Of a DNA stretch of 64,000 nt, positions 2,008 through 46,000 are shown in pieces. The stretch's first letter is position 1, and each line of letters starts with the position of its first letter. The notes under the pieces are model-generated. The model saw nothing but the letters and a program-made list of their open reading frames with translations. It was not told where the DNA came from and did not search any database. Source of the DNA: Hormiphora californensis. Lineage: Eukaryota; Animalia; Ctenophora. The position numbers were made by a program, and so were the translations under genes. The stretch spans positions 1,984,001-2,048,000 of the forward strand of contig CM035357.1 of NCBI GenBank assembly GCA_020137815.1. Reading direction: 5' to 3'.

Positions 2008-14582
<12,575 letters not shown>

Positions 14583-22124: not shown

Positions 22125-25100
22125 TCACTTGTCTCGAAAGTCTACATCTTCCACACTGACTGGGACAACCCTTCTCTTGGTTCCCCGAAGCGCAACAAGA
22201 GTTGATCTTAACAAACTGAATCGTGTCTTTTCTCGGATGAAGGACATGGTTTCAGCGTAACTCTCCTTGTGCCTGTCACAGATCTTCCTGGCCGCTCGCT
22301 CCAAAACCTTCCCTACTTCTCCGGCAAAACCTCCCGACGTGGAGAATACGAGGGGCGTGAAGGAACCCTGCTCCACTTCTTGCACCCTTCGCATATAGGC
22401 AAGTTTCTTCTGATTTTGGTGCTGTTTATACAGGTTCGTGATGGGCATCTTCAGGTAGGATGGGGCATTAGGATGGAAAACCCGTACATCCATGAAACTG
22501 GTCTGCATGTCAGACCATAAGCCACGACAGACTATGTCCATTCGTGCTTCAGCTTTGATATTTGCACTGATTGGCAGGTTGAATCCGTCACAGGGCAACA
22601 TTGGCTGTTCAGTGTTAACGGGTTTAAATCCCGCATACCGAAGGATATCGGCTAAGGTATCCCGAAGGTGGTCATGTCTCCACATATCAAAGCCTCCAAG
22701 CTTGCAGATCAAGGCGTGGTCACTGGTGTTTTGTGCCCCACAGCCGCATTTCCCTATCAGGTCCGGGAAGTGGAAGCCGTATCTGAGCCGAATGGCATCG
22801 ACAAACTCAACCTGGTTGAGCTCATGGCCCAGTTTCTGCAGCGGTCGAGCAGTTAGCCAACTAGAAGCACCGGGTTCGGAGCACAGCTCCATCGCACGCT
22901 GTGTCTTCATATCAAGTACTGCAAAGATATCTGCACGTTCCGTTGCATGCCTCTCATCAGTGGCGTCGGCACACTTCTTCTTCAACTTTCCGCTTTTCAT
23001 CTCGGCATCCATGATGTTATTTGGACAGTCCTCTTCCGCCAGGATAAGAGACACTAGTGGTCCGGTAGCAAAACGGGAATTATTGTATTCTTGATTAGCC
23101 GTTTGTACCGGATTTTCCAATGCCATACCTCCCATCTTGACGGGGAGTGCTAGGATCCTCCTCTCAATGTCCGAGATATGCTTTCCCACAAATAGGGGTA
23201 TCAGCTTGTGCCTCAGGATGTCTTCCATAGGTTGGAACAAGTGCCCTATATCAGGTAGTGTTCGCTACAGGTACGACCACTTCATTTTCAAACTGCGGAC
23301 ATAGTTCGAATATGCAAGGTGGGGGTGAGTTTTCGCAACAGTAACCAGGTTTTCAAGGCAGCTCACCCATTCGGAAACTTTGTTCGTAACAAATGTTGTC
23401 TTGAATTCAGTCGATCCGATTGCTGCACCGAGGTGTCTGGCACCAGCAGTTGTAATCTGTACACCGGTCTCACCGAATAACTCCTGTGCCTTCTCCAGGT
23501 GGTGCTCCTTTGCGATCAGGACACATTTATCGGGGTTGATATGGTACCCGAATGCTGGACCGTGTGTTGTGATGATTTCGTACCACTCATGTAGTCCCGA
23601 GATGGTTCCTGCAGCATTTCCGTCGTCAGCGTACCATACCTGCAGTACATCTTCGAGATCAGCCAGACTAATCAGGGGGAGAATGCCGATACTGTACATT
23701 GCCATTGCAGATGGACAGCCCTGCGTGGCACCCTCTTCGCTCATCAACACTTGGTTTCCGACGTACAATGGTGATGGTGCCCCGTATAGATTGTTGAACA
23801 GTTGTGCAAGTATGGGACAAAGTCTGTCAACACTATGCAGCGCAAGTCCTCTGTTCAGCCGATTGAAGGCGTTACTTGCATCTAACAGAAGAGCACCCTC
23901 ACAATCAACCTCCTCAAACCGATCGGATAGTGAATGAATGGCTGCCTCACAGCCGCCAGACTGCCCTGCTGCCAACTGTACACAGTTTGCAGCAACTTTA
24001 ATCGCTACACGCTGGGAGAAGATAATAGCTTTGACGACTATTCTCCTGAACACTTCTCCAATACCGATTGGCCGAGTACCACCATCTGTCTTCTCCAGTG
24101 GAATCAGGCGAGACGAGCAGAATATTGCAAGAAAGTCACCATGAACTTCGGTAGTTGCAAGTTTCTGGGCAACCAAACTCAAGGCATCACACAGCGCCGT
24201 AGACGATTGTTTGAATTTCTTTGCACATAGGATTCTGCTCACCCCGGAGGCGTCAAAACCACTGGGACCACCTGAACCTTTGATATTTAAACCACATTTG
24301 TAGATGCTCTCACCGGTTATGCCCTGAAATGTGACTGGCTGGTGGTCGGCAGGTGGGTCACTGTGTACATATTTGCTGCTGATAGGTGAAGCGGGTGGAT
24401 GCTTCTTTTCAAGGTCCAGGAGTACCTCGTCAGTGCAGCTTTTGACTCCACATGTGTGTCTGGAAGAGTCAAGCCATCCCGTGGCTTCACTGGTCTGTCC
24501 GTTTCTCATTAGATCGACGAACCGTTTGTTACACCGCTCCTCACTGGGGGATTGGTAGTTCAGGGGTTTCTGGATTGCAGCAGCTTCACGGAATAACTGA
24601 TCAAATTTCCCACTTTTCCATAGCTCAAGTCTCCGCTCCAACAGGTTTTTGTGTCCACCAACCTTGGACTTTTTGCTCGGTTTCTGCAGGAGAAGTGCAG
24701 GAGCTAGCACTAGGGCTGATAATGCATAAGACTCCGCAGCAGTGGATGTCGCGAAAAGGTTTGCCAGCCTAGTGAGTTCATCGATGAAACCTCTGCCAAC
24801 TGCTCCAAATGGAACCTCAAACAAGTTGGGAGCCCAGGTGCTGATTAGTGGTGCAAGAGCCTGTAGCTTCACGAATACCTCCTCTGCATTCAAATCTCCC
24901 CAACAATTCACCTGAGATAGCTGCGGTCTCGGTGGTGGGCACTGATTTACATCCGAGCAAGCTAAACAGAGGGTTGGTGAGTAATCTGGGATTGGAGATA
25001 ACTCGTTTGTGGGTGGTTGTGCTGGTGTGACACACTGTGGGTGGATGAGATTGCTACATGCAGTGCAACTAACGAACTCGACAAAGTATATCTTCTCACT

Positions 25101-25214
25101 GCACTCACAGCACACGGCATCAATTGACAGAGCATTTCTGATATTTCTAATGCACTCATCAGTCGAATCGTTATCAATATCAATATCAACAACAATATTT
25201 ATAACAGAGTCCAT
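22125..25214 (-). mobile_element. CRE/SLACS-type non-LTR retrotransposon ORF (PHD-like finger + RT + restriction-like endonuclease), one premature stop
   Basis: RT motifs RPIGIGE, LLLDASNAFN, GATQGCP and WYADD; CCHC knuckle CGCG..DHALIC; RHD and ARMDI..FMDVRV RLE motifs. The two ORFs are in frame, separated only by TAG at 23265-23267 (WSYL*RTLP). Confidence 0.9.
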
Positions 25215-25560
25215 ATAGATTAAAAATATATATGACCCTACCCGCTCTTACACTTACATACATATAAAAATATATATATGCTGCTAGGCTGAAAGGCCAA
25301 AAGGCCCCAGCAGTTACCTAAAGCGGGCTAACTATCTAAAGTGACAGAGTTTATAGAGGATACTATTCTACTTGAATTATATTGTTTCTAATATAGTACT
25401 TTCCGTCTGGATCTTCGATGCGGAGCTTTTTTAGAGTGTTTATAAGGGCTTTACGCTCCCTAATTTGACTCGGGGTTAAGTCTGGTGACAAGTAAACGGC
25501 TGAGTAATGTTCCGAGTTCTTAAGCTGTCGTGACTTTTTCAGCAGCGCCATGACATTCTG
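25170..25560 (-). mobile_element. CR1/L2-like ORF1 C-terminal fragment followed by a structured non-coding segment
   Basis: VYLSPDLTPSQIRERKALINTLKKLR..KYYIRNN resembles the end of LINE ORF1p. It is followed by nested stems and a short (ATTGAT)-type repeat. Confidence 0.55.
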
Positions 25561-27437
25561 TAAATGTAAATTATGCACTTAATATCCCACTCAATAGTGA
25601 ATATATACCCAGAAAAATGGTGCCAACGCACTCTCTAAAGTATCACTTTCTCAAGTGGATTCTGAATGTTTGTTGAATGATATTTCAGAGTCAAAAGTGT
25701 TGGAATCGTTTGAACCAAATGATGGGAATTCAGAACGAGGCGTAAAGAATGAGAGTAGGTGAGAATCAGGTCGTAAGGTGACTGGAGTTGATTGACATCG
25801 TGATGGTGATCCTCTTGACATCGGGAAAGTGTGATGAGCATCTGGTGACAGGGGTCACCAGGTATCCTCCTCGGTCCTCAGGCAACGGGGCACGTGACTA
25901 TGTTTAAGCCACGCGTGCTCAAACAAAAAGACAGAAAACGAGAAGAGACGAAACGAAAGGAAAATTAGAAAAAAACGGTTGGTGACTTCAAAAAAAGAAA
26001 CACAAAATTCTTCTTTTTATTTTTTCAGCGAGCTAAAACACGACGCGCGCGGCGCGTCGTTAATTCTGGTTTTGCGCGTTCTAAAAAATAATAATCTCCA
26101 AATGTGAACAAACTTTTCCAAGATGGCCGTTTTCGCCTTGGCATGCGCTGCAGACCCCAAGTGCGCGCGTTTTCCACGGCTGTAGCATAGGCCAAGTTTT
26201 CGCCTTTTTAACGTTTACGAAATTGAAAGGGCTTTTCAGCCTGGTTCAAAATCATGACGGCTAAAGCAGCACCCAAAGTTTGGGATCCAATATCAAAGGC
26301 TTATTTTTAACAGTAAAGGAATTACGATCACTTATTCTACTCGAATTTTGAAATTTGACCGAAGGGCTGAGTCCTGACTCCCTGACCCATCATTGAATCG
26401 CTGACCGTCCGATACCATCGTTCCCTTCATCGTTACAACCGCCAACAGGCATGCCTAGCGGTCGCTAACCAGTTACCGCTTGGAAGGTTGGCCGCGCATC
26501 TAACGGGGAGACATAGCACTGACCCATTCTCAGTTCTCACGCGATTCGAACTGCTTAGCGAAGTGATGAGATTGAGGTCAAGCATCACGCTTACAGGGGG
26601 AAGGGACGACACGTTGCCTGTATTAGACGTTGCCTGTATGACAGTTGACAAGTACAGTACTTTGACTTTGTACTGTGACGGTTTATGCAGCAGTAATGTT
26701 AGGGCGTTCTGGTACATGATGTGAAATCCTAGTTGGATTATCCAACCCAAGCTATATAGCCCTATTATATTATCAAAACCAAGCTACAGGAAAACAACAA
26801 AAGTTAGAACAACTACAACCCTAACAGCACTTGTCTACGCAGAATTACCTGTAAATATTAGGTGCACGTGAGTGCTCTACCAGAAAGCCCTAAAATTTTC
26901 TGTGAACTCGGTACTTTCAGGAGCAGTGTTCAATATTAGTAAAACAAGTGGTATATTTAGCGAATCTATAAAAAAGTAAAAGACATCTGGTAATCTTCAC
27001 TTACACGTTCTACATACTTTACACTCTTGAGGACATTCATTCACCGCACTTAAAAGATGTTGTTATATACCTCACACAGTTCTCTGGGGCTATTATAAAA
27101 CAGACAAAGTCCTTTCTTTTGTGGGTTACAGTTTAACCTTTCGACGTCAATCTCGAGGATAATTTAACCAGTGGCGTGTAAAACTAAACCCTTCTCTTCT
27201 TCGGGTTGAGGGATCAAGGTTACAATCATGAACCTTCAACATAACTGGCACAACTGCAAGACGAAATCATAACCCCGTCCTAGTATCCCTCACAGTCATT
27301 AAACTATTTCTCAATTACTCTTTCAGTTTTTCACTTCACTGAATTTCTCACAGGTCAACAGCCTTCCAACCCGCTCTCGCAGAACATAATCATTTGCGAA
27401 TATTATTACCCCGGATAGTCATACATATAATAATTCA

Positions 27438-30400
27438 TCAAGAAGTCGACCCTTTTTCCTTTTCATACACGGAGCTGAATTTGCTCACAATAATTGTCAT
27501 GGGTAGGGCGAGGAATACCATTCCTGAAGTGAGAACAATACTCCCCACAAACTTCCCGCCCGGTGTCGAGGGCACCACTTCACCATACCCCACCGTTGTT
27601 ATGGTAACAATACTCCACCAGCAACCCTGCATTATAGAGTTGAACATGACCGGATTGGACTCGTTCTCCGTGTAGTACATGATGCTACCAAAGGTGATCG
27701 TGAAGATGCCAAGTAAGACGACCAACAGCCCGAGTTCCTTCTTCGCGTGAATCACCACCTTCACAATCAGAATCAAGTCCTGTGAGTGTCGGACGAATTT
27801 AAAGATTCGGATGATACGGAAGATCCTGCAGACCCGTAACACAACGTAACGTTTGCTCATCGCCTCCAGCTCCGAGTTTTGTCCGTCGACTAACGCCCCG
27901 GGAGCGGGATCGTCCGAGGTCCAATCTGCTATGACCCCCACATAAAATGGGAGGATCGATAAGATATCGAGGACGTTGAAGAGGTTCTTCCAGAAGCCCA
28001 ACATGGATGGCCACGTGATCATTCTTGCCAGGAGGTCAGCTGTAAAGAAGGCAATGACAAATGAGTTGATTCCGAAAATAATGTCATAGTACTTGTCAGC
28101 CTTGTTGGTAAAATGTTTGCTTAGGTTGGGGTCCGTTTCCATGATGAGAAATGAGATTGAGATACAGATTAGAACAACGTCCAGACAATGCCAAACTGTT
28201 GCTATTTTCGATGCCCGGGGGTTTTGGAGGAACCTATGGACGGCCTTCTTTTTAGTCGGCCACCCCGTGGATTTGGAGCAGATGAGCTGGCAGGGATCCT
28301 CGTCTTCGGACTCGATGGAAACAGCGAAATCCTGATCGAACTTGATCCTGGGGGAAAGTATACTGATTTCTGTTGTTAGTCGTCACATCACAAGAAAACC
28401 CAAAACGATCATATATCCCATATCAAAATCACTTTCACAACCGAATATATTGCTTCACATTACGACACGTGAAAAGCTGTTCAAACTGTTTGAAATAAAG
28501 CAAACACGTACAAGCGTGGATCCATGTCAACAGTTCATTCGTTTGTTGGACAAAAGGAGACTCGAAACAATGGTCTACAAATACTAACACGGTCACTTGT
28601 AGTGGGAAAACGGTAATGGAAAACTGAAATACAGTAAGACGACGCGCAACCGTGGCCAATCAGGGCGCTGACCACATGCACTTTTTGCTGCGCATTATGC
28701 AACGTGCACGTATCATTACTGTATTTCTATTACGGTAATACGACTACAAGCAGCACTGTAATAATAACCCAGTGAGTCTCCTTTCGTCTAACAAACATAC
28801 AAGCTGTTATCCTCATGAGACAAGAATAATCAAGCGACTTACTTGAAGTAAGCTTTCTCCTCCTCCCACAAGTCTGGATCTGCATTAACGGGCGGGAACT
28901 CATCACCAGTTTGATAGAAGAGTAAAATGCTCTCGAAGCATGTCCGGCTCCTGTAAAGATGGAGGGTTCATTTTACACGTGAAAGAGGGGAGTGAAGAGA
29001 GCAGAATTTTGTCGAAGGATGCTCGGATCTTTAGTTGAGGATGGTGTTTTGCAAGGGCCGGGGGGGGGGGAGGCGGTTACGATTAACCGGGAAAAGATTT
29101 TGCTCGGTATATCGAGGTGAATTGCCGTTATTTTCCTACATCGGGGGAACTGTTATTTTACACCTCGTGGGGTAGTAAATCTAGAGCTAGAGGTCCGACT
29201 GTACTTTTATTTAGAATGCAGTGAATTTTGGTGGAACTCGGATGCCGAGTCATTTAACAACCCATGTGCTCCACATAAAGCTATAATAACCTGCTTACTA
29301 AAAAAACAAGTATTCAGTGGAACCTATGTTTATGTGGGTAGGAAACGCGATTGTATGTCGGCATATAACAGCTACAATCGCGTTTCCTACTCACATATTA
29401 TAATGCAGTAATGTGTTGGGTGCCCGTTTGGCATCAATACTCGCCCCGACATGCTAAGCAACCGGAAACTATACTTTTAGGGCTTTTTGAGAACTGTGGT
29501 CAGAGCATTGGCCTGACAGCTTTTCACTGATATAATATAGTGGGTTGCTAAGTTAGACTGTTTTTCGCACGCCCCGCGGGCGAAACACAGCTAAGCTCAT
29601 TCAAATAACGATCTGGTCCGCGATAATGCGTTGTGGGGCTCACGTGCGGGTTTTGAAATGCTGAAAATACTTACTCTGCGCGCTCTCTCGCATTCTAATC
29701 GCTGTCTCTCACTTTGAGTGAGAGAGAGCTGCGCTCTCCCTCGCATTCTAATCACTGTCTCTCACTTTGAGTGAGAGAGAGCTGTGCTCTTCCTCGCATT
29801 CTAATCACTGTCTCTCACTTTGAGTGAGAGAGAGCGGTGCTCTCCCTCACATTCTAATCACTGTCTCTCACTTTGAGTGAGAGAGAGCTGATCACATACA
29901 CGAGCTGATCACACTGCGCTCTCCCTTGCATTCTAATCACTGTCTCTCACTTTTAGTGAGAGAGAGTTTATCACGTGCACGAGCTGATCACGTGAGCAAG
30001 AGTGTACAAATACACATAACCCTCCCTTACAAATGTAAAGGGAGGGTTAGAACATAACAAATAGTGGGTGGGTGACGTGTGTGTCTCTGTAGCATTATGT
30101 ATAATACTTCATTATCATGTTCTTTACCTATTAAAGAAGTACGCATCGAGTTCAGGGCGGTAGTGTTTGTTCCGTTCAGTGGGGCAGCCCAGTAGCGTAG
30201 TTGGATGCTCTTCCAGGCACCGGTACGTCGTAATGAATAACTCTCCGCCGACATTTATCCTAAATGAATTATCACAGACTAAAATACACGCAATCAGCTG
30301 ATAGTGATGGAGAGAGAAAGAGAGGGAAAGCTAGAGAGAGAGAAAGAGATAAAATTGACGGAACATGGCTAAAACGAACCATACAATGGGACACTTCAAA

Positions 30401-30711
30401 TTGGAACTTTCCAGAAAAGACACATGGCCGTGCTATTGTCCTTCTTATATAACTCAGATTCAAAAGAAAACTCTAAATCCAGGTCTAGTGATAGAAAGAC
30501 ACCTTAAAGTGATGACCACTATGCTAGACAGTACACGAGACATGGAAATTGGAAGGCATATTGAGCTTCTCATACTATAACTACATTATACCTGCATAGT
30601 TCGTCACTCTTCCCAAGTTCATCCTCCACCTCGGTATTCTCCACTAGCTGTAAGCGGTGCTCTTTGTTAGGTCCATTAGCCGCCTGTTGTGGGTCAGGGT
30701 CAACGTGGTTC
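27438..30711 (-). CDS. Shaker-family voltage-gated K+ channel, constant exons (T1, S1-S6)
   Basis: Exons 30711-30592, 30259-30128, 28950-28843 and 28347-27438, all phase 2. T1: RINVGG..HPTTLLG..YFFNRSRTCFESILLFYQTG. S4: LRVCRIFRIIRIFKFVRHS. Pore: TITTVGYGE. S6: LALPMTII. Confidence 0.93.
29680..29970. repeat. ~52-bp tandem repeat with an internal hairpin, in a Kv intron
   Basis: Five units of cattctaatcactgTCTCTCACT-ttg-AGTGAGAGAgag. Confidence 0.85.
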
Positions 30712-31929
30712 CTGGAGAGGGAGGGAGGACGTGTTAGTATAGGGCAGGTCCTTCTCTTTAGGAATATCGAGAAACGTGTGATGGGGAGTTGGGAATAGAA
30801 GAGGGGTTCCTGGCGAGGAATGGAGGGTGTTAGTATAGGACAGGTCTCTATATCCTTCTCTCGGGGTATCCAGAAACATGTGAATATGAGATGGGGAGTT
30901 TGGGAAAAAGAAGCGGGGTTCCTGATGCAATGAGGAATGGAGGGAGTTAGTATTTTTATCAAGTGTTATCCCTCGTGTATGTGAGTCTTATATTGAGGCA
31001 GTTTGAACAGAAATAATTGATTGTTGGAGCGGAACCTAGTTGGACAAGTGCGTGAAATATCATATAGTTGGTCGTGGATGGGAAGACTGTGTGTGCCTTA
31101 TGGGAAGAATGACGAGGATAATCTAAAGGATTCAAGGGTTGAACTGAAATTAAGTTCATATATGTTTGATACACAAATTATATTGATGCCTGAAAAACGA
31201 TCTATGACATCGCATGATTGAGTTGGACATAGGCTTAGGTTTCTAGTTTGTGTCCAGATGCGTGCCGTGACTCTAATGATCATCAAGTGTTAATTAAGCC
31301 CTCTTTTCTTTATGTCACGTTTCGTGCTTTTTTTAATGCCCAATTATTACAGCCTCTCCGACTAGTGATAGTTCTCTTAATGAGCTTGGAAATGGCCTAA
31401 TTTTCTCTCAAGATAATCATAGTATGATCTATGAACAATCATATTCGATCACCTGGCGGTGCGTGTGATTATGTTTTCGTTCGAAATTAATTCTAGAAGG
31501 ATCGAGAATGATAAAATTCTGATATTGAGTAAAATAACTTTGTCAAGCCTCCATGAGTTTGACCCCATGGGGGACTGCTGAGTCCCCTGTTTCTTCTTCC
31601 AAGATTAAGCAATAGTTCATGCACAATGACGTGAATGCCTAGTCACTGATTTAACAAGTATTCCGGGCCAATTTTATACAGTAGTTAGATGGAGTTGTGA
31701 AAACACGTGTCACCAACACTAAGTTATAGAAGTGTGATAATTGGCAGAGAGCGCTGGAAAGCGACAACATACAGTGACAATGGAGGACAAGGAAGGGGAT
31801 ACATACAGCGATCCAAGAACCCAGGCAGCGCTAGCGGCCATAAATCACGTGGGGTCGAAGCTAGTTGGGGACCTCAACTATAACAACAAATCAGGGACTG
31901 GGAGTGGGCATGAACACGAGAGTGAACAA

Positions 31930-32520
<591 letters not shown>

Positions 32521-32525
32521 TTTAC

Positions 32526-32587
32526 CCGTCGTCATCGCTGGTCACTGCTGCACAATTCCTGCAGTCAACAGGCACAGTCAGTGACAT
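32526..32587 (-). CDS. Candidate alternative first exon V5 of the Kv channel (MSLTVPVDCRNCAAVTSDDDG)
   Basis: ATG with an upstream in-frame TGA; phase-2 donor GG|gtaaaa. Confidence 0.55.
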
Positions 32588-32771
32588 ATGAAGGAGTGCA
32601 GCAGTTGTAGTAGTAGTACAGCTTCAGAGATGAAGTGGGAATCTGATTGATTGCAGCTTCAGAGACGAAGTGGAAGTTTGATGGATTGGAATTCTGCAAT
32701 GACTAAAAAGATCAACAAGTCGAAACGAAACCAGCGCACACACATGTGTATAATATATATTTTGTGTCAAT

Positions 32772-32857
<86 letters not shown>

Positions 32858-33734
32858 GATAGAGAGCCGAGATGGAGAGGGGGTCGGGGGGCTATGTGTG
32901 CACTCGCCCTATTAGAGAGAGATAGATGCGAGAGAGCTCGGTATCTAGCACTACGCTCTCGCTCCTAATGATCGAGAGAGATAGATTCGGAGAGATATGA
33001 GGCACTTCTATCGCATTCTATACCACCACTCTCCGGCTTTTTTCTCTTTAAGTTTGAGTAAACTTCGTTAAAGCCTTGTCATTAATGACATTTAGCTATA
33101 CCACAGGACTCCATCTATTTTCCTCTTTTTCTCTCTCTCTCTCTCCCTCTCCCTCTCTCTCTCTCTGCGTGAAGTCGAAAACAGAAAAGGATAGCAAGAA
33201 GGGCAGATTGATGGAGGGGGCTGCATCAGGGGGCTCCACAGCAAAACATAATGTGTGTTAGACTCGAAGTGCTTGTTATACGCACACTTTGAACTGCGTG
33301 GGTGAACGTGGACCTAGTCCAAATATTATTATTACTTAATAACCCCCCCCCCCCCCCACACCATACAATAATAGCGTTACTGTGCACGTTTTATCAAAAC
33401 TGTTCACTGTTCAGTGCACCAGCCCATTCTGTCCCGTTTTGTCCCTCAAATCTAATATATTCGTCATATATATGCAGTTTATAACGTGTCAGGTGAATGC
33501 AGCAGAAATAACTCTCGAAAGTGGAACTACTTATCAAATGACAAGCAGAGCAGAACGGTACTTCATTAAAACACTTGAAAGCCCCTATAGTCAATGTTTT
33601 AGAGGAGAGTATTCGAGCCTAATTTACAGCCTTCACTTGTTTCATAAGACCAACCAAACACTAATAAATGATATCGAACAGCAATTATTCTGAATGAGAT
33701 CTGAGCAAGAATTAAAGGGAAGAAAATAAAAAAT

Positions 33735-33815
33735 ACTGGGCGTGACCGGGATCGGAATTGAACCAACGACCTCCAGAGAGACATTCCCGAAGCTATAAAC
33801 CACTATACCAAAAAC
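33735..33815 (-). mobile_element. tRNA-derived SINE head or tRNA pseudogene
   Basis: A box TGGTATAGTGG, B box GGTTCAATTCC and a downstream T-run; the acceptor stem does not pair. Confidence 0.55.
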
Positions 33816-33859
33816 TAACAACAGCAATTGTTGCAAAATTTCTCCCTTACTACACTTAC

Positions 33860-34023
33860 TTTTTACGAGTATGACGACGACCGCTACTGGAATCGCTAGA
33901 GCTGCTTGACGAGCTACTGCTTGTTGGACTGCTGGCTCGATGATGTGCTTTACGCCCCCTGGTGGTGGGTGATTGGATCATGTCGACAGGTTTTCTAAGT
34001 GGGTTGTATAACAACTGATCCAT
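33860..34023 (-). CDS. Candidate alternative first exon V4 of the Kv channel (M[DQ...]MIQSPTTRGRKAHH...RRHTRKK)
   Basis: ATG at 34023 or 33981; canonical phase-2 donor AA|gtaagt. Confidence 0.65.
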
Positions 34024-34619
34024 AACGAAAGGGAATAGGAAAGGGACAGGAAAGAGAAGTGCACTGTTTGTGTTAGAAATATAGCTACTACTACATGGCG
34101 AGCACTGCATGTTTACTTTTTTGTCATTCCTGAGTAGGTGTACATGATCCTGCTCTGTCAAAACAGAATGAAATTCCCGAGAAGTGAAGCTGTAGGTACA
34201 ACCAAGGTATTTGGCGTTCCGATCAAAGGCAAATATTAAGACAGTCCAATACTAGCTTCTGCTGCTAACGAATCCAACGGCCTGATCGTCGATAAACAAC
34301 CGATCAAAGAAAAAAACCAAATGAAACAACACTTCCGATAGAATTATCGGGACGAAGCGGTCCAAAAAGCGATGAAAATAGCTACAGTAATTGTTTCTTT
34401 TTCAAGGTTTAATGCTTTATAGAGGCTCTATATTCTTCCTTCCCTATCTCTTTATTATATCTTCCCCTCCTCTCCCTGTCTTCCCAAAAAGCTATAAAAG
34501 GAATCATAAGACAGAACGGTAATGTGACGAGGGAATGAGATTGTAAAGAATTGGGTGAAATATAGCGTGAAATAGAGCGTGCAACTCCATGGCTAAACAA
34601 GATAATGATAATGGTAAAC

Positions 34620-35227
34620 CTTTCATCTTCAGGCAAGGTTTCCTCTCCTCCTCCTTCCCCCTTCTCCTCCTCCTTCCCTGTATCTTCCTCCTCTTCCTGG
34701 TGTTCCTCTGCAGCATCTTCCTCAGCTTCCTCCTCCCCTCTAGTATCTTCCTCAATATCTTTGCTATCCTCTGACTCGACCCCAGCTGCAGCAGCCTCTA
34801 AGTCAACTACTGATCCTTCTTTCACAGAAGACTGATCCAGGGTAGTCCCATCCCCCTCCTCATCCTCCTCATCTTGGTCTGCGTTTCCAATTTCTGTGTC
34901 AATGTCAGCGTGACTCCGACCCAGACTTGGTGTTCCGATCTTACTACTGGGCCGGCTTCCTGATTTTTGCTTCCTCCTCAGCGAGGAAGCTCCTTCCCAG
35001 GCCTTGACAAGAGGGTTGGTAATAGCATGTCGAGGTGGTGGCTGGAGTAGGTTAACAGCATTACCTCCACCCGTTGAGGAGGCACTAGATTGCTGGCTGC
35101 GAAGGGCAGTGTCGGGGGTCATCTCGTGAACGGAGGTCCTCTTGCGCAGTCGTCTTGGTGGAGGGGCGGCATTAGCACGGGCCTGTTGGTTCCGACGGGT
35201 CACATAGTAGTTCAGAATTGCCTGCAT
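34620..35227 (-). CDS. Candidate alternative first exon V3 of the Kv channel (MQAILNYYVTRR..., 202 codons with an acidic tract)
   Basis: ATG preceded by an in-frame TGA; coding-like composition ends at the phase-2 donor AG|gtttac. Confidence 0.6.
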
Positions 35228-35529
35228 TTCTCCTCAACTAGGTAACTGATCCGAGATTTGCGTTTTAGATTTGTCCTTTCTCTCTCTCGCTATCTCAGCT
35301 TGCACTGCAGTGATCTCCTATTTTTAATGTTAAACAAAAAACAAGCAATGTGTCAACCGAATATTTAACCGAGGCGGAGCTACAAGCGCGCTGTGCTCTC
35401 TCTTTTTATCTTTCTTTTTCCTTCCTTTCCTCTCTTTTCGGTTCGTATTATTAAACATGTCTTATGTGATTAGCCCCGTGTGAACGGTGTGTCACATAGG
35501 AGAGAGAAATAAAGAAAGAGAGAGAGAGA

Positions 35530-35654
<125 letters not shown>

Positions 35655-35981
35655 TGGTTAAACTTTTTCGGTAACGCGGTCGGTTATTATATTCATATTA
35701 TTCGGCTTGGAACATTTTCTCTATTGCTCTCTTCAATGGTGAACGAGCACTGCAGTAGCACTATAATACATACTGTCTAACTTCCAAGACATGTCGACAC
35801 GTGCAATGAACAATGTTTGTACGATGTGTTTGGTTTAACAAAAAAGCAATTAAGACTAAACAGTGCTAAAGGAACAATAAAGATTAACCCAGAACTGTGT
35901 TTGTTCGCCTGCACTGTCCCTCGCAGCTGTACTAATTTTGTGAAAGCTGATAGGGACAGTGCATATCAGTATGGTATAGGA

Positions 35982-36090
35982 CAGGAACCGACCGACACAA
36001 GTAAGCAACCAATCAGAACTCGTTCTTTAGGTCACGTGACTGGTTATCAGCCAATCAGGGACCAGTATTTCCTGATTCGGTCGGTTCCTG
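35982..36090. mobile_element. 109-bp hAT-type MITE
   Basis: 14-bp TIR CAGGAACCGACCGA / TCGGTCGGTTCCTG; perfect 8-bp TSD GTATAGGA (35974-35981, 36091-36098). Confidence 0.95.
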
Positions 36091-36117
36091 GTATAGGATC
36101 AGCTGTCAATGAAATAC

Positions 36118-36287
36118 CTAACGATTGTAGTGGCAGGGGGAGGTTGTAGTTTCTCCAGGGTCCTTGTAATGTGTTCTGCAGTTAGGATCGTCTCTTGTCG
36201 CTGGAGCAGGACCACTTTCCGGCGGCATGGTACCGCCGCGGACCTCTGGCTGCTAAAAACTAGGGCAACACTAGATGAACATGCCAT
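36118..36287 (-). CDS. Candidate alternative first exon V2 of the Kv channel (MACSSSVALVFSSQRSAAVPCRRK...)
   Basis: ATG with an upstream in-frame TAA; phase-2 donor AG|gtattt. Confidence 0.6.
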
Positions 36288-37364
36288 GTAGTACAACTCA
36301 CATTATAGGACAAGTGGAATATATTGGGCGGCCAAATATTGAGACAACAATTAGTTGACACAGGGGGAAGTGTACGTGTGACTGTGACACAGGGTATCCG
36401 TGTGGTTGTTCACTGGTATAAAACCACACTGCACACACATGGGATAAAGTGTAATACACAATTGGTGTTATGGAGGTGACTGAACAAATTCGAGATACAA
36501 CTATACTCTCAAGTAGGGGAGGTAATTGGTGACATGACAGTGGAAAATGTTTGGGATACAGCAAGAGAGGGCCGTGAGAGAGCAAACAATCAAACAACCC
36601 CCTCTTTGAAAATATCAGGAGGAGGAAATTAGGTGAGTAATATAGAATGTACAATGTTATAACATGTATAGTCACATCACTGGAACATCTGCCTGGCGGC
36701 GCTAGACCCTGTTTTGATTCTCACACCACATGGTGCCCTCAGATCAGGTCGGCACCGCTAGAAACTCTTCGTGGGCGCACAATTCAAGGAAGACTAACCT
36801 GTCAATGCGATAAAACAACTTTCAGCCTGAAAAACTAGAGAGAGAGATAGACTGCTAATGTATATATACTAGCTGATACTAATAATGGCCTTCTCTCTCT
36901 CAATATGCATGCACAAGTAATTTCCTTCTATTAACACCCCTCTCAGCGGTTTCTGCGAGCTGTCTCAGCTGCCTGATTGTTGGCACTCTGTGCATGTTGT
37001 CATAGTTCTAGCTCTCTCGGTTAATGCATGCCCCTTGTGGTGTACTTATATAGGTAGCCATTAACCAACGATGTTATACCAATGTCATGGAGATGTTATA
37101 GAGATGTTTAGTGCAGTACTGACCGGATGAATTTTATCGTTCATGATACATGGTCTGGGTTACAAATCAATATTTAAGCCAGGGGGGGGATAAAAAGCCC
37201 GTTTGGGGGTTTCGTCTAGCTCGAAGAGCCGGACCGGGTGGTTGGAATCATTTTCGTGAACACCCCCTCTGTCAGTGCGATTAGGCGATGATTACCCACA
37301 CGAGAGTACCGCACAATCGATCAATTTTATGAGCTATGTTTATTGTTGATTACTAGGTACTTAC

Positions 37365-37597
37365 TCTGAGTGATGGTTCAGTTCGGGAGAGTGCGGGTGT
37401 GAGCGATGGTGATGGTGCTGCCGAGGGGGGTCCGGGAAACTAAGAAACCTCAATTCCTTGCACATCTTCCTGTTTCTCCCTCCCGTATGGACTCGGGGCC
37501 GGGGTTCTCCACTGCCTGCACTGATATACCGGGCATCCCTCCTACCACCGCCGCTGCCAGGGGGTCCTCCACCAGGGGGTCCACCTGCCATGGGCAT
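37365..37597 (-). CDS. Candidate alternative first exon V1 of the Kv channel (MPMAGGPPGGGPPG...HHSE)
   Basis: Pyrimidine tract and acceptor ccag 5 nt before the ATG; canonical phase-2 donor GA|gtaagt. Confidence 0.65.
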
Positions 37598-38159
37598 GAT
37601 ACCTGGATAGTTGGGAAGGGTGAGAGATCTCGCAGCAATGAATACAGTGTGGTCGATTTCAAAACGGCGGAAGTTTCGACTCTGTCAGCGTCATGCCTGA
37701 ATACTAGCCGCTCAACTGAGAAATGTAGTCAGCACGATGCCTTATCAGAGTGTCAATGCAGGTGTGCGGACTCTATAGTGCTACACTCTAAGTCTACAGT
37801 GGAGTCTGAGTGGACTCTTCGTCTAAATTTAGATAAAGAGTCCGTTAGCACCAGCTAGTCCGCCCACCGTCAATGCAGTAGCAAGGGTGAATCAATCAAT
37901 GAAAGCTAGGATCAGATGTGTTATTATTATGCTAATTGCAATCTTTGATGTTAATATACAACCCTCACGTGACAGCGGGCAAAGAATTGTAATTACAAAT
38001 CCGTAATTCTCGAGATGCGAAATGGGAAAATCCGGATACCTTGCAGTTCCAGGAGAAGAAGAAGAGAGGTAGAGAGAGAAACAAAAGAAAAGAGAATAGC
38101 GCAGATAAGAAGATTAGGTTCTAAAAGAGATATCGGAAGAAACTAGAGATAGATCTTCT

Positions 38160-39000
38160 TCCTCGCTATTCTCCTCTCTCCTCTCCCGCCTTCTCGCCGG
38201 CTCTCTCTCCTCTCCCCTCTCCCCTCGCTCTCTCCCCCCCCCTAGCTCTCTCTCTCTCTCTCCTTTTTTTTTTCCCCCCCGGGGGGGGGCCCCGGGTTTT
38301 CCCCCCCCCCCCGGGGGGGGCCCCCCCCCCCCCTTTTGGGGGGGGGCCCCCCCCCCCTTTTTTTTCCCCCCCTCTCCCCCTCTCCCTTTCTCTCTCTCCT
38401 CCTCTCTTCTCTTCTTTTTCCCCCCTTCTCTCTCTCCTCTCCCCCCTCTTTTTTCTCTTTTCCTCCTCCCTTCTCTCCCCCCCTTTCTCTCTCTCCCCCT
38501 TTCCTTTCCTTTTCTCTCCCCCCTTTTCTCCTCCTTTTTTTTTTCCCCCCCCCTTCTTTTTCAATTCCTTTCCCCCTTTCCCCCTTTTTAAAAATTTTTT
38601 TTGGAATTTCCCCCTGGTGGCCTTTTTTTCCCTCTCCCCCTTTTTTTTTCCCCCTTTTTCCCTCTTTTTTTCCCCCCCCCCCCCCTTTCCTCTCCCCTTT
38701 TCCCCTCCCCTTCCCCCCTCTCCTCCCTCTCCCCCCCCTTTCTCCCCCCTCTCCCTTTTCTCCTCCTCTCTTTTCCCCTCTCTCTCTTTCGCCCCCCCCC
38801 TTTTTCCCCCCCTTTTTTTTCCCCTACCCCCCCGCCTGGGGAAAATTTTTTCCTTCCCCTTCCCTTTCCAATTTTTTTTTCCCCTTTTTTTTTTTTAAAA
38901 AGAAGGGAAAAGCTTTTAAAATTTTTAAAAATTTTGCAATTACAAATGGCAATGGAGGGGGGGAAAGTGGGGTGAAAGGGATTCTGAGTGAAAAATAAAC
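38160..39000. other. Homopolymer-garbled low-quality sequence
   Basis: Near-continuous C/T/G runs, resembling a degraded read of a (CT)n tract. Confidence 0.75.
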
Positions 39001-41350
39001 CCTCTGAACAAAAACTAGACTTTTTTCAATTACGAGTCAATAAACTATATACTGTCTCCAGTTAGCCATTTGTTCAATGCTATCCGGATCCCATCTCCAG
39101 ATTGAATCAAATACCTAGATCTGTGGAGATGGGATCCGGATAGTAATGGAAAAATGGCTAACTGGAGACGGAATGTCTTAAAAGAAAAGAGATAGATGGA
39201 TAGAGAGATAGACGGACCGAGAGAGAGGGAGATAGAGACAAAAAAGAGAGATAGAGAGAGTAAGGGGAAAGACGGATAGAACATGGGGAGGAGGGAAAGT
39301 CTCCCAATTAGAATGTTCCCAGTATATGAGAGGAAGAGAACATCGCGTCCTGTATGTGTGAGAGAGAGAGAGAGAGAGAGAGGAGAAGAGATGGGAGAGA
39401 GAGAGAGAGAGAGGAAGAGAGAGGAGAGAGAGAGATAGAGGAGAGGCGGAGAGAGAGAGCGCGGATAGAGAGAGAGAGAGAAGAGATAAGGCGAGAGAGA
39501 GAAGAGATGAGAGAGCTCGACGAGATTCTCTTAGCTTTCTCTCTCTCCCCCCTAGAGAGAAAACTGAGAGAGAATCACGGATAACCAATTCACGGATAAC
39601 AGTGCGCATTGTGGGAATAAAACACTAGTGAATACACACAATACTACTAGTAAAGAAAGTAGAAAATGTGATGTATACAAGCCTAATATCCAATATAATG
39701 GCTTCAAAGCAGTTTGTTTCATGTTTTTGAAATCAGCACAAAAGTCAAAAAATGCTGTGTGTAAAAATTTCCGACTGAGAAAAAAGTCCGCCTGGCAATT
39801 GATATGAGGCTGCATGAGGAATCGAGAAGAAATTCAAGGCTACAACTTTCAAATAAAACTGCCCCCCTCTCGTATAATACTTTTACAAAATAGCCCCCCC
39901 CCCCTGGTGTATTATTATAATGTTGTACATCGTTTTGACACTCACTTATTAACTCGGACTCTAACTAACCCGGCACATGGCAGCAGCAATAGGGTGGGGC
40001 ACAAAAAGTGAACGTATAATTAGTGGTCAAATATTTTACTGCACTGTTGTAGTAGTATTTTAACCATGAACTTTGGCCAGTTTCACGTTGAACTAACAGG
40101 GTTACAAACTAGAACGACCAGTTTTTGCAGATCTAAATCTTGCCTTGTTCGACCCTCTCTCCCCGCGTTTGAACAAAACAAGTGAGTCCTTGATTATGAG
40201 CATCTGACAAAGAAATTCGCCAATTAGTGGGAACAATAGATAATACGCTATACGCTACACATATCGCAAATATGCTGCAACTTCAAAATCAACTGCAATG
40301 GCCTCAATAATGCCAAGAAATTGTTCAGGTTTCAAAACATATTTAATTTTATTTGAAGATAGCAAATCATTGTTTTGTCGAACAAGGCAAGCAAATCACA
40401 TAACCATAACATAATCAAGAAGAAAATTACAAAACAATAACAAGAAAATGTGAAGCTGAAGATTGAAGAAGTTCCAAATAACAATGTCCTACAATAAAAG
40501 AAATTACATTTTACTAGAAACCTACGAATCCAGCTATGCACAGGAGAGAGAGGAAATATTATAATGATACAGCACACACTCGACTACCCTATATATGTTT
40601 GTTGTGTCAAGCCACCGTGTCAACAACTATATAATACTACAAGTTCTACCCCACGATACTTCAAAGAAGCTTGAAAATGCAGACTGTAGAACTAGAACAT
40701 GAAGTACAGACAATGGAAATACACATGTTGTCTTGGAACATATTGAAAAAGTTTTGAGACACGTCATAGTCTTTATTCGTTTGAATTTCAAACAAATTGA
40801 AAGAGATTTATAGTTTAGCAGAACAAACATGTTCAAGCAAATTGTCAAAGACGTTTCATGTGTTTATCACCTGCTTCTTTCTCTATTTCCACAGATTTTC
40901 TCTCTAGCTCTATCACTTCTGTTTTTATCACTTCGCTATCCTTCTCTCTCTATCTATCTCTCTTTATCTATCTCTCTATCTATCACTCTCTCTATCTTTA
41001 TCTATCTCTCTAAGTCTCTAACATTTTATTCCTGAAATTTATATACACAACACCTGTATCACTCACCATATTTTCACACCTTCCTAATATCCATTTATAC
41101 TACCTAGCCACTGTATGGTATCATAGTAATTCATTGGTCGCTATCATGGCAACCAAATTCTTTACTATGGTAACTAACCACCAAACTGTATTGGTTACGA
41201 AATTACCACTGTATAATTATAAGGAGCTCGCGATGAGGGGAAATTTCGATACCAACTCACATAACTAACTCACTTAACTAACTCACTTACAAATGTTAGC
41301 ACGGGGAGGTCTAAAAAAAAACTAACTCACTTAACTAACTTGAATTTTAT

Positions 41351-41471
41351 GAAATTTCCCACGGTCATAGCTCCACCCCCTGATGAGATAGAGACTTGAA
41401 TTTTTTGTAGGAAGATCATGTCGAGATGTTTCTATCTCACCAAGGGGTAGAGCTATGACCGTGGGAAATTT
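41351..41471. mobile_element. Imperfect palindrome / MITE core
   Basis: aaatttcccacggtcatagctc...gagctatgaccgtgggaaattt. Confidence 0.65.
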
Positions 41472-43023
41472 CGCAAAACCAGTGATGGTATTTTTATAAA
41501 ACTATAGTTTGGGTTTTACTTTACTTGATTCGGGGCCGGGGTGGGGAAAGGGGTTTGCTCGGTAAGCGGTAAAAAGCGGTTCCCGGTATAACTATATCGG
41601 GGTGAAATCCTGCAAATTTTCTATAATTGGCCATTTGGGGAATTTATCCATCCGGTAAACAGGGTTTCCGGTGAATCGGGGAACAGTAAATGGGATCCGA
41701 CTGTAGGTACTCCAAATTAACAGACTACCCCCTCATGGCTCATCTCTCTTTTCCTCTCTCTCCATATTTCCGATCCTACCTTCGATCCTACCTTCGAGAA
41801 CAATCTTCCGAAATCCGAATTGAACTCCTACCCATAATAATTGTGGTGTATCTGGGACGTCTCTCCGTTCGGCCAGTCTGTCCATTCGGCCCGCTCTCGC
41901 TCGCCCTTCGTGCTCGAAGGCCCGGCGTGAGACAGTAGGAACTCTCGCTACATACTTATTACTTGACAATGACATGTTCTAGGAATCCTAGTATTTGTGG
42001 ACCGCCCTAGGGCGACACAAGTACTCGAACAAAATGACCTCGAATCATGGCCTCTTTGCTACTGCAGGATTAAGTCGTTTGACACTGTTTCCGTGTATGA
42101 ATAATTCAACTACAGGATCGTCGATCGAAGTTTGCAATTCAAATTTATTTCGAGGTCGCGCTCAATATTTTTGACCACTTTGCGTAACGCGCGAGACCAA
42201 TCACACAGAGTTGATACGCGCAAATACAACAGTGCGCACAAAAAAGGATTGCGCGGCTTGAGGTCAGCTCAGTCATGTCATTCACGTCGCGACGGAAACA
42301 CTTTTTTGTCGGAAAACGTTAAAATCGGGGTGTTTTGATTGTTAACACTCACGGTTTTTTAGGGTTAGGGCTAAAGTAGGGCTAGGGTTAGAGCTGCGTT
42401 GGGGTTAGGGCTTGATATTTTTTATCAGATAAACTTTGGGATTAGCCAAAAGGGTTGAGTGGTTTTGGTGGTTAGAGCCATTTTAGTACAGGGTACTTTT
42501 TGGCAGTGCACTAATCGTGAACCATAATACAGTTCAAGAGCCTCCAAGAGCGGAACCTATCCAAAAGATACCAAATCCAAGAGATCTCCCCATCCAGAAG
42601 ATAACACACGCAGGGGATACCACACGCAGAAGATGTCTCATGTCCCCGGCGTCGTATTTTTGTGGGTGACCTCTTCTGCATGTGGTATCTCTTGTGCACG
42701 GTATCTTCTGGATGGGGAGCTCTCCTGGTCGTCGTGCGCTCTTGGATCTGGTGCGCTCTTGGAGGCTCGTGAACTTTATTATGGTTCACTATAATCAGCA
42801 GGCCTATAAACACCAAGATCGTAACGGCGCCCGTTATTGTCCCAAAATGGAACCAACGGGTTCGCGATTCGCTGAGAGTACTGAGAATTTAAACACCCAG
42901 ATCGTAACAGCGGCCACCTCATTCGCCTTTACACTACCAGAGGACGTGTGGATTAATCTTACCCTAATGTTTGGCTAATATATATTTACAAAATTACTAT
43001 TCAAACCCCCACTTGCCGGTAGG

Positions 43024-46000
43024 ATGATGCGGGTATCCTCATGGGTGTTGTTCCTCTACCTAGTCATTTCCTCCCAATCTGTCCTTGAAACTGCCCTGAG
43101 CTTCCATGTCCCCGCCCGGAAGGAGCAGTGCTTTTACGAGGATGTGAAAAAGGGAGATGAGGTTGAAATAGATTTCCAGGTAATACAAAAAATAGTAGGC
43201 CGATTTGATCAGTAATGCCCCACACACACACACACACTCACATCACGGTGTACCCCGGACGTAATAAAATTCACCATGTATGACCTGAAAAAGCAGCCCT
43301 TCAAACTTATCAGCCCCGTGTTATTAATGCAGTTTTTGAAATAGTGTTCTGTTTTTGAAATAGTGTTCTAACAAAACAGGTCCCTCATGTTTCTACGGTG
43401 TCTCTTGTTTTGGTAATTATTTAATTAATCAATTATCTAATTTTTTTTCTCAGGTGATAGATGGGGGAGATTTGGATATTGATTTTTCTGCCTATGACGG
43501 TGATTTGAAACGCATTGCAATCAACCGACGAGAGCAGTACGGGTCACACCGATTTGAAGTGGCGAAAGATGGAACTTATAAAGTTTGCTTCAGCAATAAA
43601 TTTAGGTTGGTTTATCAGTAATGTATTAATCATTGGCTAGTTTATTATTCGTATACATAATTATACACCGCCACCTGTATAATTATACATCGCCACCCCC
43701 AAATATCCCCAAATAGAATAATCAACTTTTTCCACCTTTGGTCAATTTCACAACATCTTTCCTCTTAACTTGCTGATACTAGCGCTCCCAACAGCAATGT
43801 ATGATTCAAAACAACCAATCCTTCCCCAGCAAGATGACTAGTAAGACTGTGTTTATGGATGTGTATGTGGATAATGGCGTGTACGAAGAGGACAAAACAG
43901 CTGCCCTGGATGCGTCACTTCAAATTGGAATCGGAAATCTAAATGTGAGTAGCAAGTTAGTTAGTAAATCTCAAAATATCCGGCCAATATCTTAGTTAAA
44001 TACTCAATCTGATCTAGCTCCCTCTCAGTTGCCATTACATGTAAGTTCCTAAAAGTAGCGTGGCTACCCCCTCTATTGTGGTAGAGTAAGTTAAAAGTTC
44101 ACAATACAATAACATCTGGAAGTTTAGTATTCACCCGGCCGTGGAAGAGTAATAAGGGGGGGGGGGGTAACAGCCTAACTTTCCTGCCTTGGTAACCTGT
44201 CCCTGAGTTAAACTAGGTCCCTAAATTTAATTAGGTCTCTGAATTTAACCATGCCCTATTAGATTTACCCTTAGTTTTCATAGTTTTATACCTGCGGTAG
44301 AGCCATACACAACCACTTCAGCAATGGTCATGACTAGTTTCTCGTTATTGTTTATGTCACATCCACAAATCACGTTATCTGTTAAAAGTACTGAAGTGGT
44401 CGGTTCTGGGACAGGAGGACAGGATATCGTGTAAGTCTGGGCTTCTACAGAGGAACGGTTCTTGCTGACGGAAGTGATTGTCCCACAAGTCGTGTTGGTT
44501 GATCCGTGAACTAGAGATACGATCGTTCCGTTTAGTCTATCGTTGTATTTCGTATTCAATCTGAATAATAGTACAACGCAGGGTTAAATCTTACAGTCGG
44601 ATAGAAGGTGCGGAAGTGTGTGTGCTCAAAGAAAGCATTCCAAGTTCAGTGAATAACTTTGCGGTGGAAGGATGCGTTGCTACCCCACTGCCGTAACAGT
44701 GACCACGCTTTACCCCTGCAAATCTAAGATTTCTAAATCATGATGATCATTTTAGCACACGTGATGAAAATACCATCCGGGGGAAAAAATCACAAACCTG
44801 TTAACAATAACAACTTTGTTGACTTTAAAATGTGAACCAAGCCGCAGTTCCAGCCATTCCGGATCCACATTATCAGAAGAGTGGAAGGTAGTAGTAACAT
44901 TTCCATCAAACGCATTGTATGGTTTATTTTTTGAGAGGTTGCGATAGATGGAACTGGCGGACCCGGACACAATTGGAATCCTGTTGATTTCACACAATAC
45001 TAGCGGAGGTTGGAGGAGGAGGAGGAACACGAAGATGGTACACTTCATAGCTAGTTTAGTAGGGTTCAATTAGTCAACATTGCATGAAAGATCTAACTAT
45101 CGAGCTAGTTATAAATTGTGGATATTCAACTTAAACAGACAAGACATACATGCTAAAATATTGAAGAAATTAAGCTAGGGTTAAACTTAGTCGAGATGGC
45201 TAATGTTATTGATCCGATCAAGGTTTGAGTGTATGAATCTCTCTCTTTCTCTCTATGAGAGATGGTGTTTTATACACGCAAAGGTACAAGCTCAAAAAAA
45301 AGGCCCCCCCTAGACCACCATAGTTGCCGATGTGGTGGAGAGCTGTAACTTGGCAGGGTTGCTCCACTATGTCTATCTTGATCCTGACAGAAAAATCAGA
45401 GCTCTAGCTCAAAATTCATTTTCATGAACGGAATGAACTTCTCCGTTCCTTCGATATGAGACCCCCTCATCATTCAGAATTTTTTGCCCGTCTTTGGCTA
45501 ACGATTATCTTTGTAATGAGACCAATTTGAGCATAATCTGATTACCAGGAGAGACACAGTGGAGGGTTTTCCGACCGTCACTCCTGACATGTGATCCAGG
45601 CCCGGTCACGTGGTGAAAAGTGGGTTTGGGGTGCTGTTAACATGTCTCAATAACGGATTATTGCTCTCATATCCCTTGAATATCCCTCCACAATGCTCTC
45701 AAGTCACTTTGTGATGCTGATTGATTGGGTTCATGTCACCAGTTCTTGTCAAAGTTCTCAAGCGGCCCGTGATACGAGATCATTTCATCAAGGAGGGGCC
45801 ATCTTGTGTCACTAATCAGCCTATCATCTCACATTACACTAGCCAAGGGATCTGGGGTATTTAAATCTTCAAATGTTCATCAAAATCATTCCCAATCGTT
45901 ACTTGCAATGCATTTTACACCCGAACAGAGGAACTTCATCTGGCTCAAGAAGGAAACCAACACCCTCTACCCCACCATCGAACAGGAGTTCTTTATCAAG

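Follow-up and report, generated by a model that had tools for sequence, protein, structure and literature searches.

Drosophila Shaker, the closest described system to the locus analyzed here, carries five unrelated N-termini that block the channel to graded extents, with a potency that correlates with the inactivation rate (PMC2229190). Its variation is confined to the 5' and 3' exons (PMC10527868). In ctenophores, deletion of the N-terminus abolishes fast inactivation in the channels MlShak4, MlShak5 and MlShak13, and the same work credits ctenophore K+ channel diversity primarily to gene expansion; in its main text the terms splic-, exon, isoform and intron never occur (10.1101/2024.12.09.627618). 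Cnidarian and mammalian Kv1 genes are mostly intronless and diversify via gene number and beta subunits, splicing being judged unimportant (PMC3519636). We analyzed a 64,000-nucleotide stretch of Hormiphora californensis DNA (contig CM035357.1, positions 1,984,001 to 2,048,000; hereafter the window, with positions numbered from its first letter). Its channel gene, on the minus strand, is by its sequence a ctenophore Kv1-like Shaker; the cnidarian and mammalian genes likewise encode Kv1-like channels, with a range of inactivation rates. The constant exons of this gene contain no start codon; their single phase-2 acceptor, at 30711, very probably receives one of several upstream coding exons that are unrelated to each other.

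This arrangement resembles Drosophila Shaker in that a Kv1-type core receives several unrelated N-termini above the T1 domain, as seen in the orthologs and indicated for Hormiphora by the homology of two of five candidate exons (V1 and V3 of V1-V5; Table 1), and the first-pass annotation was right to draw the comparison. Unlike in Drosophila, the orthologs of the window gene have one C-terminus, and the ctenophore pattern extends over many paralogs rather than one gene; because ctenophore Shakers form a separate expanded clade, the likeness is likely convergent. We therefore regard the locus as probably a convergent ctenophore case of Shaker-type N-terminus choice, already latent in automated annotation. 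MlShak4, MlShak5 and MlShak13 belong to the same family as the window gene but are different paralogs, each expressed as one open reading frame (ORF). Clustered protocadherin and UGT1 loci, also invoked in the first-pass annotation, splice variable 5' exons to shared constant exons; those variable exons are large tandem paralogs that carry a functional domain, each with its own promoter and, in protocadherins, a shared element. Unlike these, the variable exons of the window encode short, mutually unrelated tails (10 pairwise comparisons, lowest p 0.032), so the fit is loose. The absence of homology among V1-V5 and of any Pfam family in V1 or V3 rules out a locus of the protocadherin or UGT1 type, and a search of 31000-38100 for a shared upstream element showed only microsatellites and short two-copy repeats. 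Our searches turned up no publication that describes alternative N-termini of ctenophore Kv channels, although PMC11309979 or PMC11917167 may mention them.

The constant core and its junction

The four constant exons (Table 1) encode 422 amino acids and every intron is in phase 2. Exon 4 contains a basic S4, the TVGYG filter and S6. T1 begins at residue 39 and the first Met is residue 189, within the membrane part, so the protein needs an upstream coding exon with a phase-2 end. This bears out the first-pass observation that the constant part opens at a phase-2 acceptor with no ATG before T1. The T1 zinc-site motif H-x5-C-x20-CC, which marks Kv2-4, is absent from the window protein, and the gene groups with ctenophore Shakers. 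Among 105 matches, the best named ones were Mnemiopsis G004775 and Bolinopsis XP_063686011 (71% each on the last exon). A 34-row tree placed the window gene in a supported set of four (95/88) with XP_063686011, G004775 and P0004, and within this set outside the Bolinopsis-Mnemiopsis pair; the window protein is 68% identical to the two orthologs. The acceptor region itself is triplicated, as direct repeats of the acceptor unit spaced 96-117 bp. The candidate acceptor in the copy at 30921 is open and in frame and would add 70 amino acids, whereas the copy at 30809 shifts the frame.

The orthologs carry most of the evidence for interchangeable N-termini. The Bolinopsis cluster has 18 members, of which 15 were listed and eight are the RefSeq isoforms X1-X8 of Bolinopsis microptera (XP_063686008-016). 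All eight share a 418-residue suffix that begins at Asn-His-Val, preceded by eight different N-termini of 6-115 residues, six of which have only 6-16. The four isoforms of the Mnemiopsis ortholog (ACHWQZ_G004775 / ML149210a; Mlei_149210a in PMC11287247) likewise share a 423-residue suffix from the same residues, with three junction types, and the C-terminus is single in both sets. A further ctenophore cluster, which has no firm position in the tree, holds four N-terminus types at Asn-His-Val among the 11 long members printed, two of which start lower. The phase-2 join is directly visible in two of its assembled transcripts (spliced contigs L001 and L002): below the junction their identity is 98.75% over 1200 nt, above the Asn codon they have exactly one G in common, and an in-frame stop lies upstream of the ATG in each. 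As judged from these alignments, the ortholog N-termini all diverge exactly at the window junction and in the same phase, which answers the earlier call for conservation in other ctenophores with relatives that have 3-8 N-termini. For three of the eight Bolinopsis N-termini there is a Mnemiopsis match at p<=0.002, and one N-terminus recurs in P0240, from a third species; the other five have no convincing Mnemiopsis match. Set against Bolinopsis X1-X8 and Mnemiopsis G004775, the window has the same junction and a V1 homologous to X2, and V2-V5 have no detectable counterpart there.

Table 1. Features of the Hormiphora channel gene in window coordinates.
Feature	Position	Strand	Description
Constant exon 1	30592..30711	-	Codon-completing G, then Asn-His-Val; linker to T1; ortholog isoforms all converge on the same NHV
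Constant exon 2	30128..30259	-	First half of T1 domain; Pfam BTB_2, E 2.9e-05
Constant exon 3	28843..28950	-	Second half of T1 domain; aligns to Bolinopsis ortholog
Constant exon 4	27438..28347	-	T1-S1 linker, S1-S6, pore, short C-terminus, stop; Pfam Ion_trans, E 5e-39
Triplicated acceptor region	30712..30960	-	Two additional copies of a branch/pyrimidine/CAG unit, at 30921 and 30809
V1	37365..37597	-	Variable N-terminal coding exon, 78 aa, Gly/Pro-rich, basic, L-x-F-L-x-F-P motif; best supported
V2	36118..36287	-	Candidate variable exon, 57 aa from own ATG, or 135/132-nt internal cassette from acceptor 36252/36249
V3	34620..35227	-	Putative variable exon, 203 aa, hydrophobic-then-basic start, long acidic tract
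V4	33860..34110	-	Putative variable exon, Ser-rich, basic; start uncertain (34110, 34023 or 33981); donor AA/GTAAGT
V5	32526..32587	-	Weakest candidate, 21 aa; may be due to chance or be an internal exon of 33 nt that uses acceptor 32558

Candidate upstream exons

All five upstream ORFs proposed in the first-pass annotation exist: each starts with ATG, stays open for 3n+2 nt and ends at a GT (233, 170, 608, 164/122 and 62 nt for V1 to V5). The reported donors, stops and acceptor phases hold as well. The donors at 37365 and 33860 are GTAAGT, with the reading frame closing at the intronic TAA; the ATGs at 36287, 35227 and 32587 are preceded by in-frame stops at distances of 5, 2 and 12 codons; and the acceptors above V1 (37602, phase 1) and V4 (34154/34149, phase 1/0) are in incompatible phases. 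GC content drops at the donors of V1, V3 and V4 but not of V2 or V5, as ranked among 368 GT sites. Coding potential was scored with a weak codon model trained on the channel gene alone, under which held-out true exons ranged from -2.6 to 2.0 and V1 reached -5.0.

Homology argues that V1 is almost certainly spliced to 30711 in Hormiphora. Aligned to the N-terminus of Bolinopsis isoform X2, it scored 87; the best control frame gave 51, and none of 2000 shuffles did as well as V1. V1 also matches P0129 and P0125 (p 0.002 and 0.01) via its L-x-F-L-x-F-P motif, contig L002 encodes a V1-type N-terminus fused straight to the constant exon, and the GC step at its GTAAGT donor is in the 99th percentile. 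Three matches to V1 in the ESM Atlas, at 0.80, were uninformative. Use of V3 with the same acceptor is quite likely. Its homolog P0241 (E 9.7e-05) was the one real hit of two matches in 1.84 billion representatives. Before the donor, 48 of 69 positions are identical with whole-codon gaps only and the frame kept; after it, 45 of 56 are identical, but there is a frameshift near 34477. The comparison favors V3 as a predicted coding exon over a stand-alone gene. The V3 donor (AG/GTTTAC) is weak and the ORF continues 71 codons beyond it; the GC step there is in the 96th percentile and the coding score falls from 3.6 to -11.8 past the donor. P0242 (E 9.6e-04) was dropped as a V3 homolog, being a compositional match.

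The remaining candidates are graded lower. V4 is likely joined to 30711, with a GC step in the 93rd percentile and a coding score no better than background; its frame holds a further in-frame ATG, at 34110, beyond those first reported. Just below the tandem acceptor above V4 is a 10-codon ATG-led phase-2 ORF (34117-34145, minus strand), which may be a sixth short start exon or chance. For V2, we favor to a modest degree a role as start or cassette exon: in the phase-2 frame its coding score is 3.6 per 100 nt (null 95th percentile, -1.5), and its first 35 nt resemble a 3' splice site, so V2 may be a cassette exon. Inside V2, a second ATG-led frame (36118-36228, minus strand) closes with TAG exactly at the donor and has a lower coding score than the phase-2 frame. 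A 28-nt piece at 36799-36827 (minus strand) runs from an acceptor-like site to a strong donor, CAG/GTTAGT, with a stop in phase 2, and could be a non-coding 5' exon feeding V2. An interspersed repeat of ~105 bp lies just past the V2 donor (35985-36090; one copy in the window) and matches a run X1 contig with unlike flanks at ~90%. Splicing of V5 to 30711 is doubtful, though conceivable, given a moderate donor, a GC step in the 74th percentile and a coding score within the null.

Further exons in 38100-43000 were sought and none was convincing; the segment directly upstream of V1 (38150-39050) is rich in G/A homopolymers, looks of low quality and could hide more. The conserved short Ile-Ile-Arg-Arg type of N-terminus of the orthologs was not found in the window, where start exons as short as the 6-16-residue Bolinopsis ones are indistinguishable from chance. 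In X1, the one run that an RNA search brought up (share 0.00), 27300-31800 and 35700-38100 returned only short repeat or paralog pieces without joints, neither for nor against the upstream exons.

Choice of the N-terminus and competing explanations

Under the proposed mechanism, alternative transcription starts would most likely put one variable exon first, and its phase-2 donor would be spliced across 1.8-6.7 kb to 30711. Some isoforms may gain cassette exons, and a trans-spliced leader may be added afterwards on some. The resulting channels would share T1 and the pore and differ in N-termini, probably disordered, that could modulate N-type inactivation or the targeting of the channel. To judge from Drosophila Shaker, an effect of these N-termini on inactivation is slightly more likely than not. 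With 38 residues between it and T1, the variable tail occupies the site at which an inactivation ball acts, and computed hydropathy and charge give V3 and V2 ball-like starts, hydrophobic and then basic, whereas the acidic V5 and the Gly/Pro-rich V1 are not ball-like. The channel could thus plausibly occur in both inactivating and non-inactivating forms. Alternatively, the isoforms could exist but be, for the most part, neutral side products of promoters active in particular tissues, with no part for the N-terminal peptide in gating. The peptides are of low complexity and fast-evolving, five of the eight Bolinopsis N-termini lack a convincing Mnemiopsis match, and alternative starts may be common throughout these annotations. 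We nonetheless consider neutrality unlikely, as each of the five gene pairs tested has individual N-termini conserved across species, the V1 motif is preserved in three lineages and ctenophore Shakers use N-type inactivation (10.1101/2024.12.09.627618).

Several observations weigh against the splicing of alternative upstream exons to 30711. Exon use in Hormiphora itself is predicted from sequence and homology, and the ortholog isoforms are automated database models. When V2-V5 were compared with 22 ortholog N-termini, none scored above control frames. Conservation with P0241 is as high after the V3 donor as before it, so the comparison does not pin the donor position, and no protein longer than 355 residues carrying the V3 front half was found among 571 candidates, which is weak evidence. 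The four strong Mnemiopsis inactivators have other gene identifiers, and ML149210a is not among them (PMC13749725). With a loose donor score and a minimum of 60 nt, as many as five phase-2 ORFs also turned up in 105 of 300 dinucleotide shuffles and in 29 of 39 block-by-phase controls on real sequence; five loose upstream ORFs are chance level. V2, V4 and V5 have phase-2 acceptor-like sites (36252/36249, 34189 and 32558), each of which gives an open frame behind V1, and the ortholog isoforms include two-exon N-termini, so some of the ORFs may be internal and could be chained. The earlier claim of five non-chaining first exons therefore holds for the existence of the ORFs and not for their inability to chain; that of interchangeable N-termini on a constant acceptor stands on the ortholog junctions and V1 homology, and the figure of five first exons is unsupported.

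When a strong donor and at least 120 nt were required, three ORFs remained (37597, 36287 and 34110/34023), a number equaled by none of the 300 shuffles and by 2 of the 39 real controls; the thresholds of both settings were picked after looking at the data, with donors scored against a consensus. Three of the seven strong minus-strand donors in 30712-38100 close such an ATG-led phase-2 frame; the only other ATG-led frame of this length at these donors is in phase 1 (inside V3), with none in phase 0 and none on the plus strand. The sequence alone thus supports about three upstream exons, not five. We give an even chance to a trimmed form of the preferred reading in which the start exons number just two or three (V1, V3, V4) and V2 and V5 are internal cassettes or chance. 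The internal acceptors of V2 and V5, which are open behind V1, and the chance-level result are consistent with it, and there are precedents in a 41-residue second exon common to the Mnemiopsis ortholog isoforms and a 21-residue cassette in a Bolinopsis paralog; on the other side, stops lie closely above the V2 and V5 ATGs, and the 6-16-residue N-termini of Bolinopsis make short start exons normal, so that the real number could exceed five. That V1 alone is used, with the rest being chance or V3 a small gene of its own, without introns, that lies within the channel intron, is improbable. V1 is the sole ORF with an ortholog match, the V3 donor is weak with its ORF running on, and nested genes are common in ctenophores (PMC8527503), but the orthologs carry 3-8 N-termini, three long ORFs end at strong phase-2 donors with none in phase 0, and both the P0241 frameshift and the fall in coding score occur in the read-through part and not in the V3 exon.

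Alternative spliced-leader trans-splicing could make the choice instead: on a single long pre-mRNA, the leader would join the acceptor above the exon in use and so remove the exons upstream of it. Leaders, which end in TGAG, are present on at least 56% of Hormiphora Iso-Seq reads (PMC8527503, where Hormiphora leader trans-splicing is described). Acceptor-like sites lie 5 nt above the V1 ATG and ~110 nt above V5; contig L002 opens with an AT-rich 22-mer ending in TGAG (1-22), and L005 begins with TGAG (1-4), both weak pointers. Such acceptor-like sites are common, however, and were not scored as support; the start of L002 is no close match to the published leader, and the leader-like pattern occurred three times in the window against 2.47 expected. 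A leader on an isoform does not separate promoter choice from acceptor choice, and the skipping of downstream exons would still need explaining. We consider this route very unlikely here, and no likelier as a bolder sub-case of a family-wide arrangement.

The wider Shaker family and the window neighborhood

The trait is more interesting family-wide in ctenophores than as a single locus. Of the Shaker loci reached by our searches, 5 of 8 in Bolinopsis and 5 of 7 in Mnemiopsis have at least two N-termini that meet at a single junction above T1, counts that come without a genome-wide control for alternative starts and from a survey that took member-rich clusters first and left out two single-member Bolinopsis clusters, a biased part of a 27-42 gene family. 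In each of the five Bolinopsis-Mnemiopsis gene pairs tested, at least one N-terminus is conserved. Two paralog pairs also have two S6/C-terminal forms that diverge just after GYGDM in both species, which are probably mutually exclusive last exons. The genes concerned are XP_0636778xx / G014878 and XP_0636872xx / G015942 (P0052, P0154, P0064, P0168, P0050, P0178, P0063 and P0193). It is conceivable, though somewhat less likely than not, that ctenophores independently rebuilt the Drosophila Shaker splicing toolkit family-wide, with N-terminus libraries on many paralogs and some exclusive S6/C-terminal exons that set inactivation and assembly cell by cell. If so, phenotypes published with one ORF per gene would be incomplete, including those of some "silent" subunits; 7 of 16 Mnemiopsis Shakers give no homomeric current.

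Current accounts derive ctenophore K+ diversity from gene expansion and assign Shaker splicing with a functional role to protostomes. Should ctenophores use both, the nervous system that branched off earliest would have arrived at the solution of the fly independently, and the real channel repertoire would be several-fold larger than the 27-42 genes counted. The inactivating form may then be missed by gene models and expression constructs that include a single N-terminus. The proposal is directly testable, with isoform sequences at hand for Bolinopsis and Mnemiopsis and an oocyte assay already in use.

Elsewhere in the window, a non-LTR (long terminal repeat) retroelement-like ORF of ~1040 codons (22125-25247, minus strand; Pfam RVT_1), with one in-frame stop near 23265, lies just downstream of the channel gene. 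Neighboring genes are found at 42979-43995 (plus strand) and at 44278-45069, 57932-59919 and 2911-7097 (minus strand). Among them, Pfam identified a p24/TMED gene, which is oriented divergently to the channel gene, as well as an F5/8-type-C gene, and a subtilisin-like convertase and an LDL-repeat-bearing gene resembling a G protein-coupled receptor were recognized by eye.

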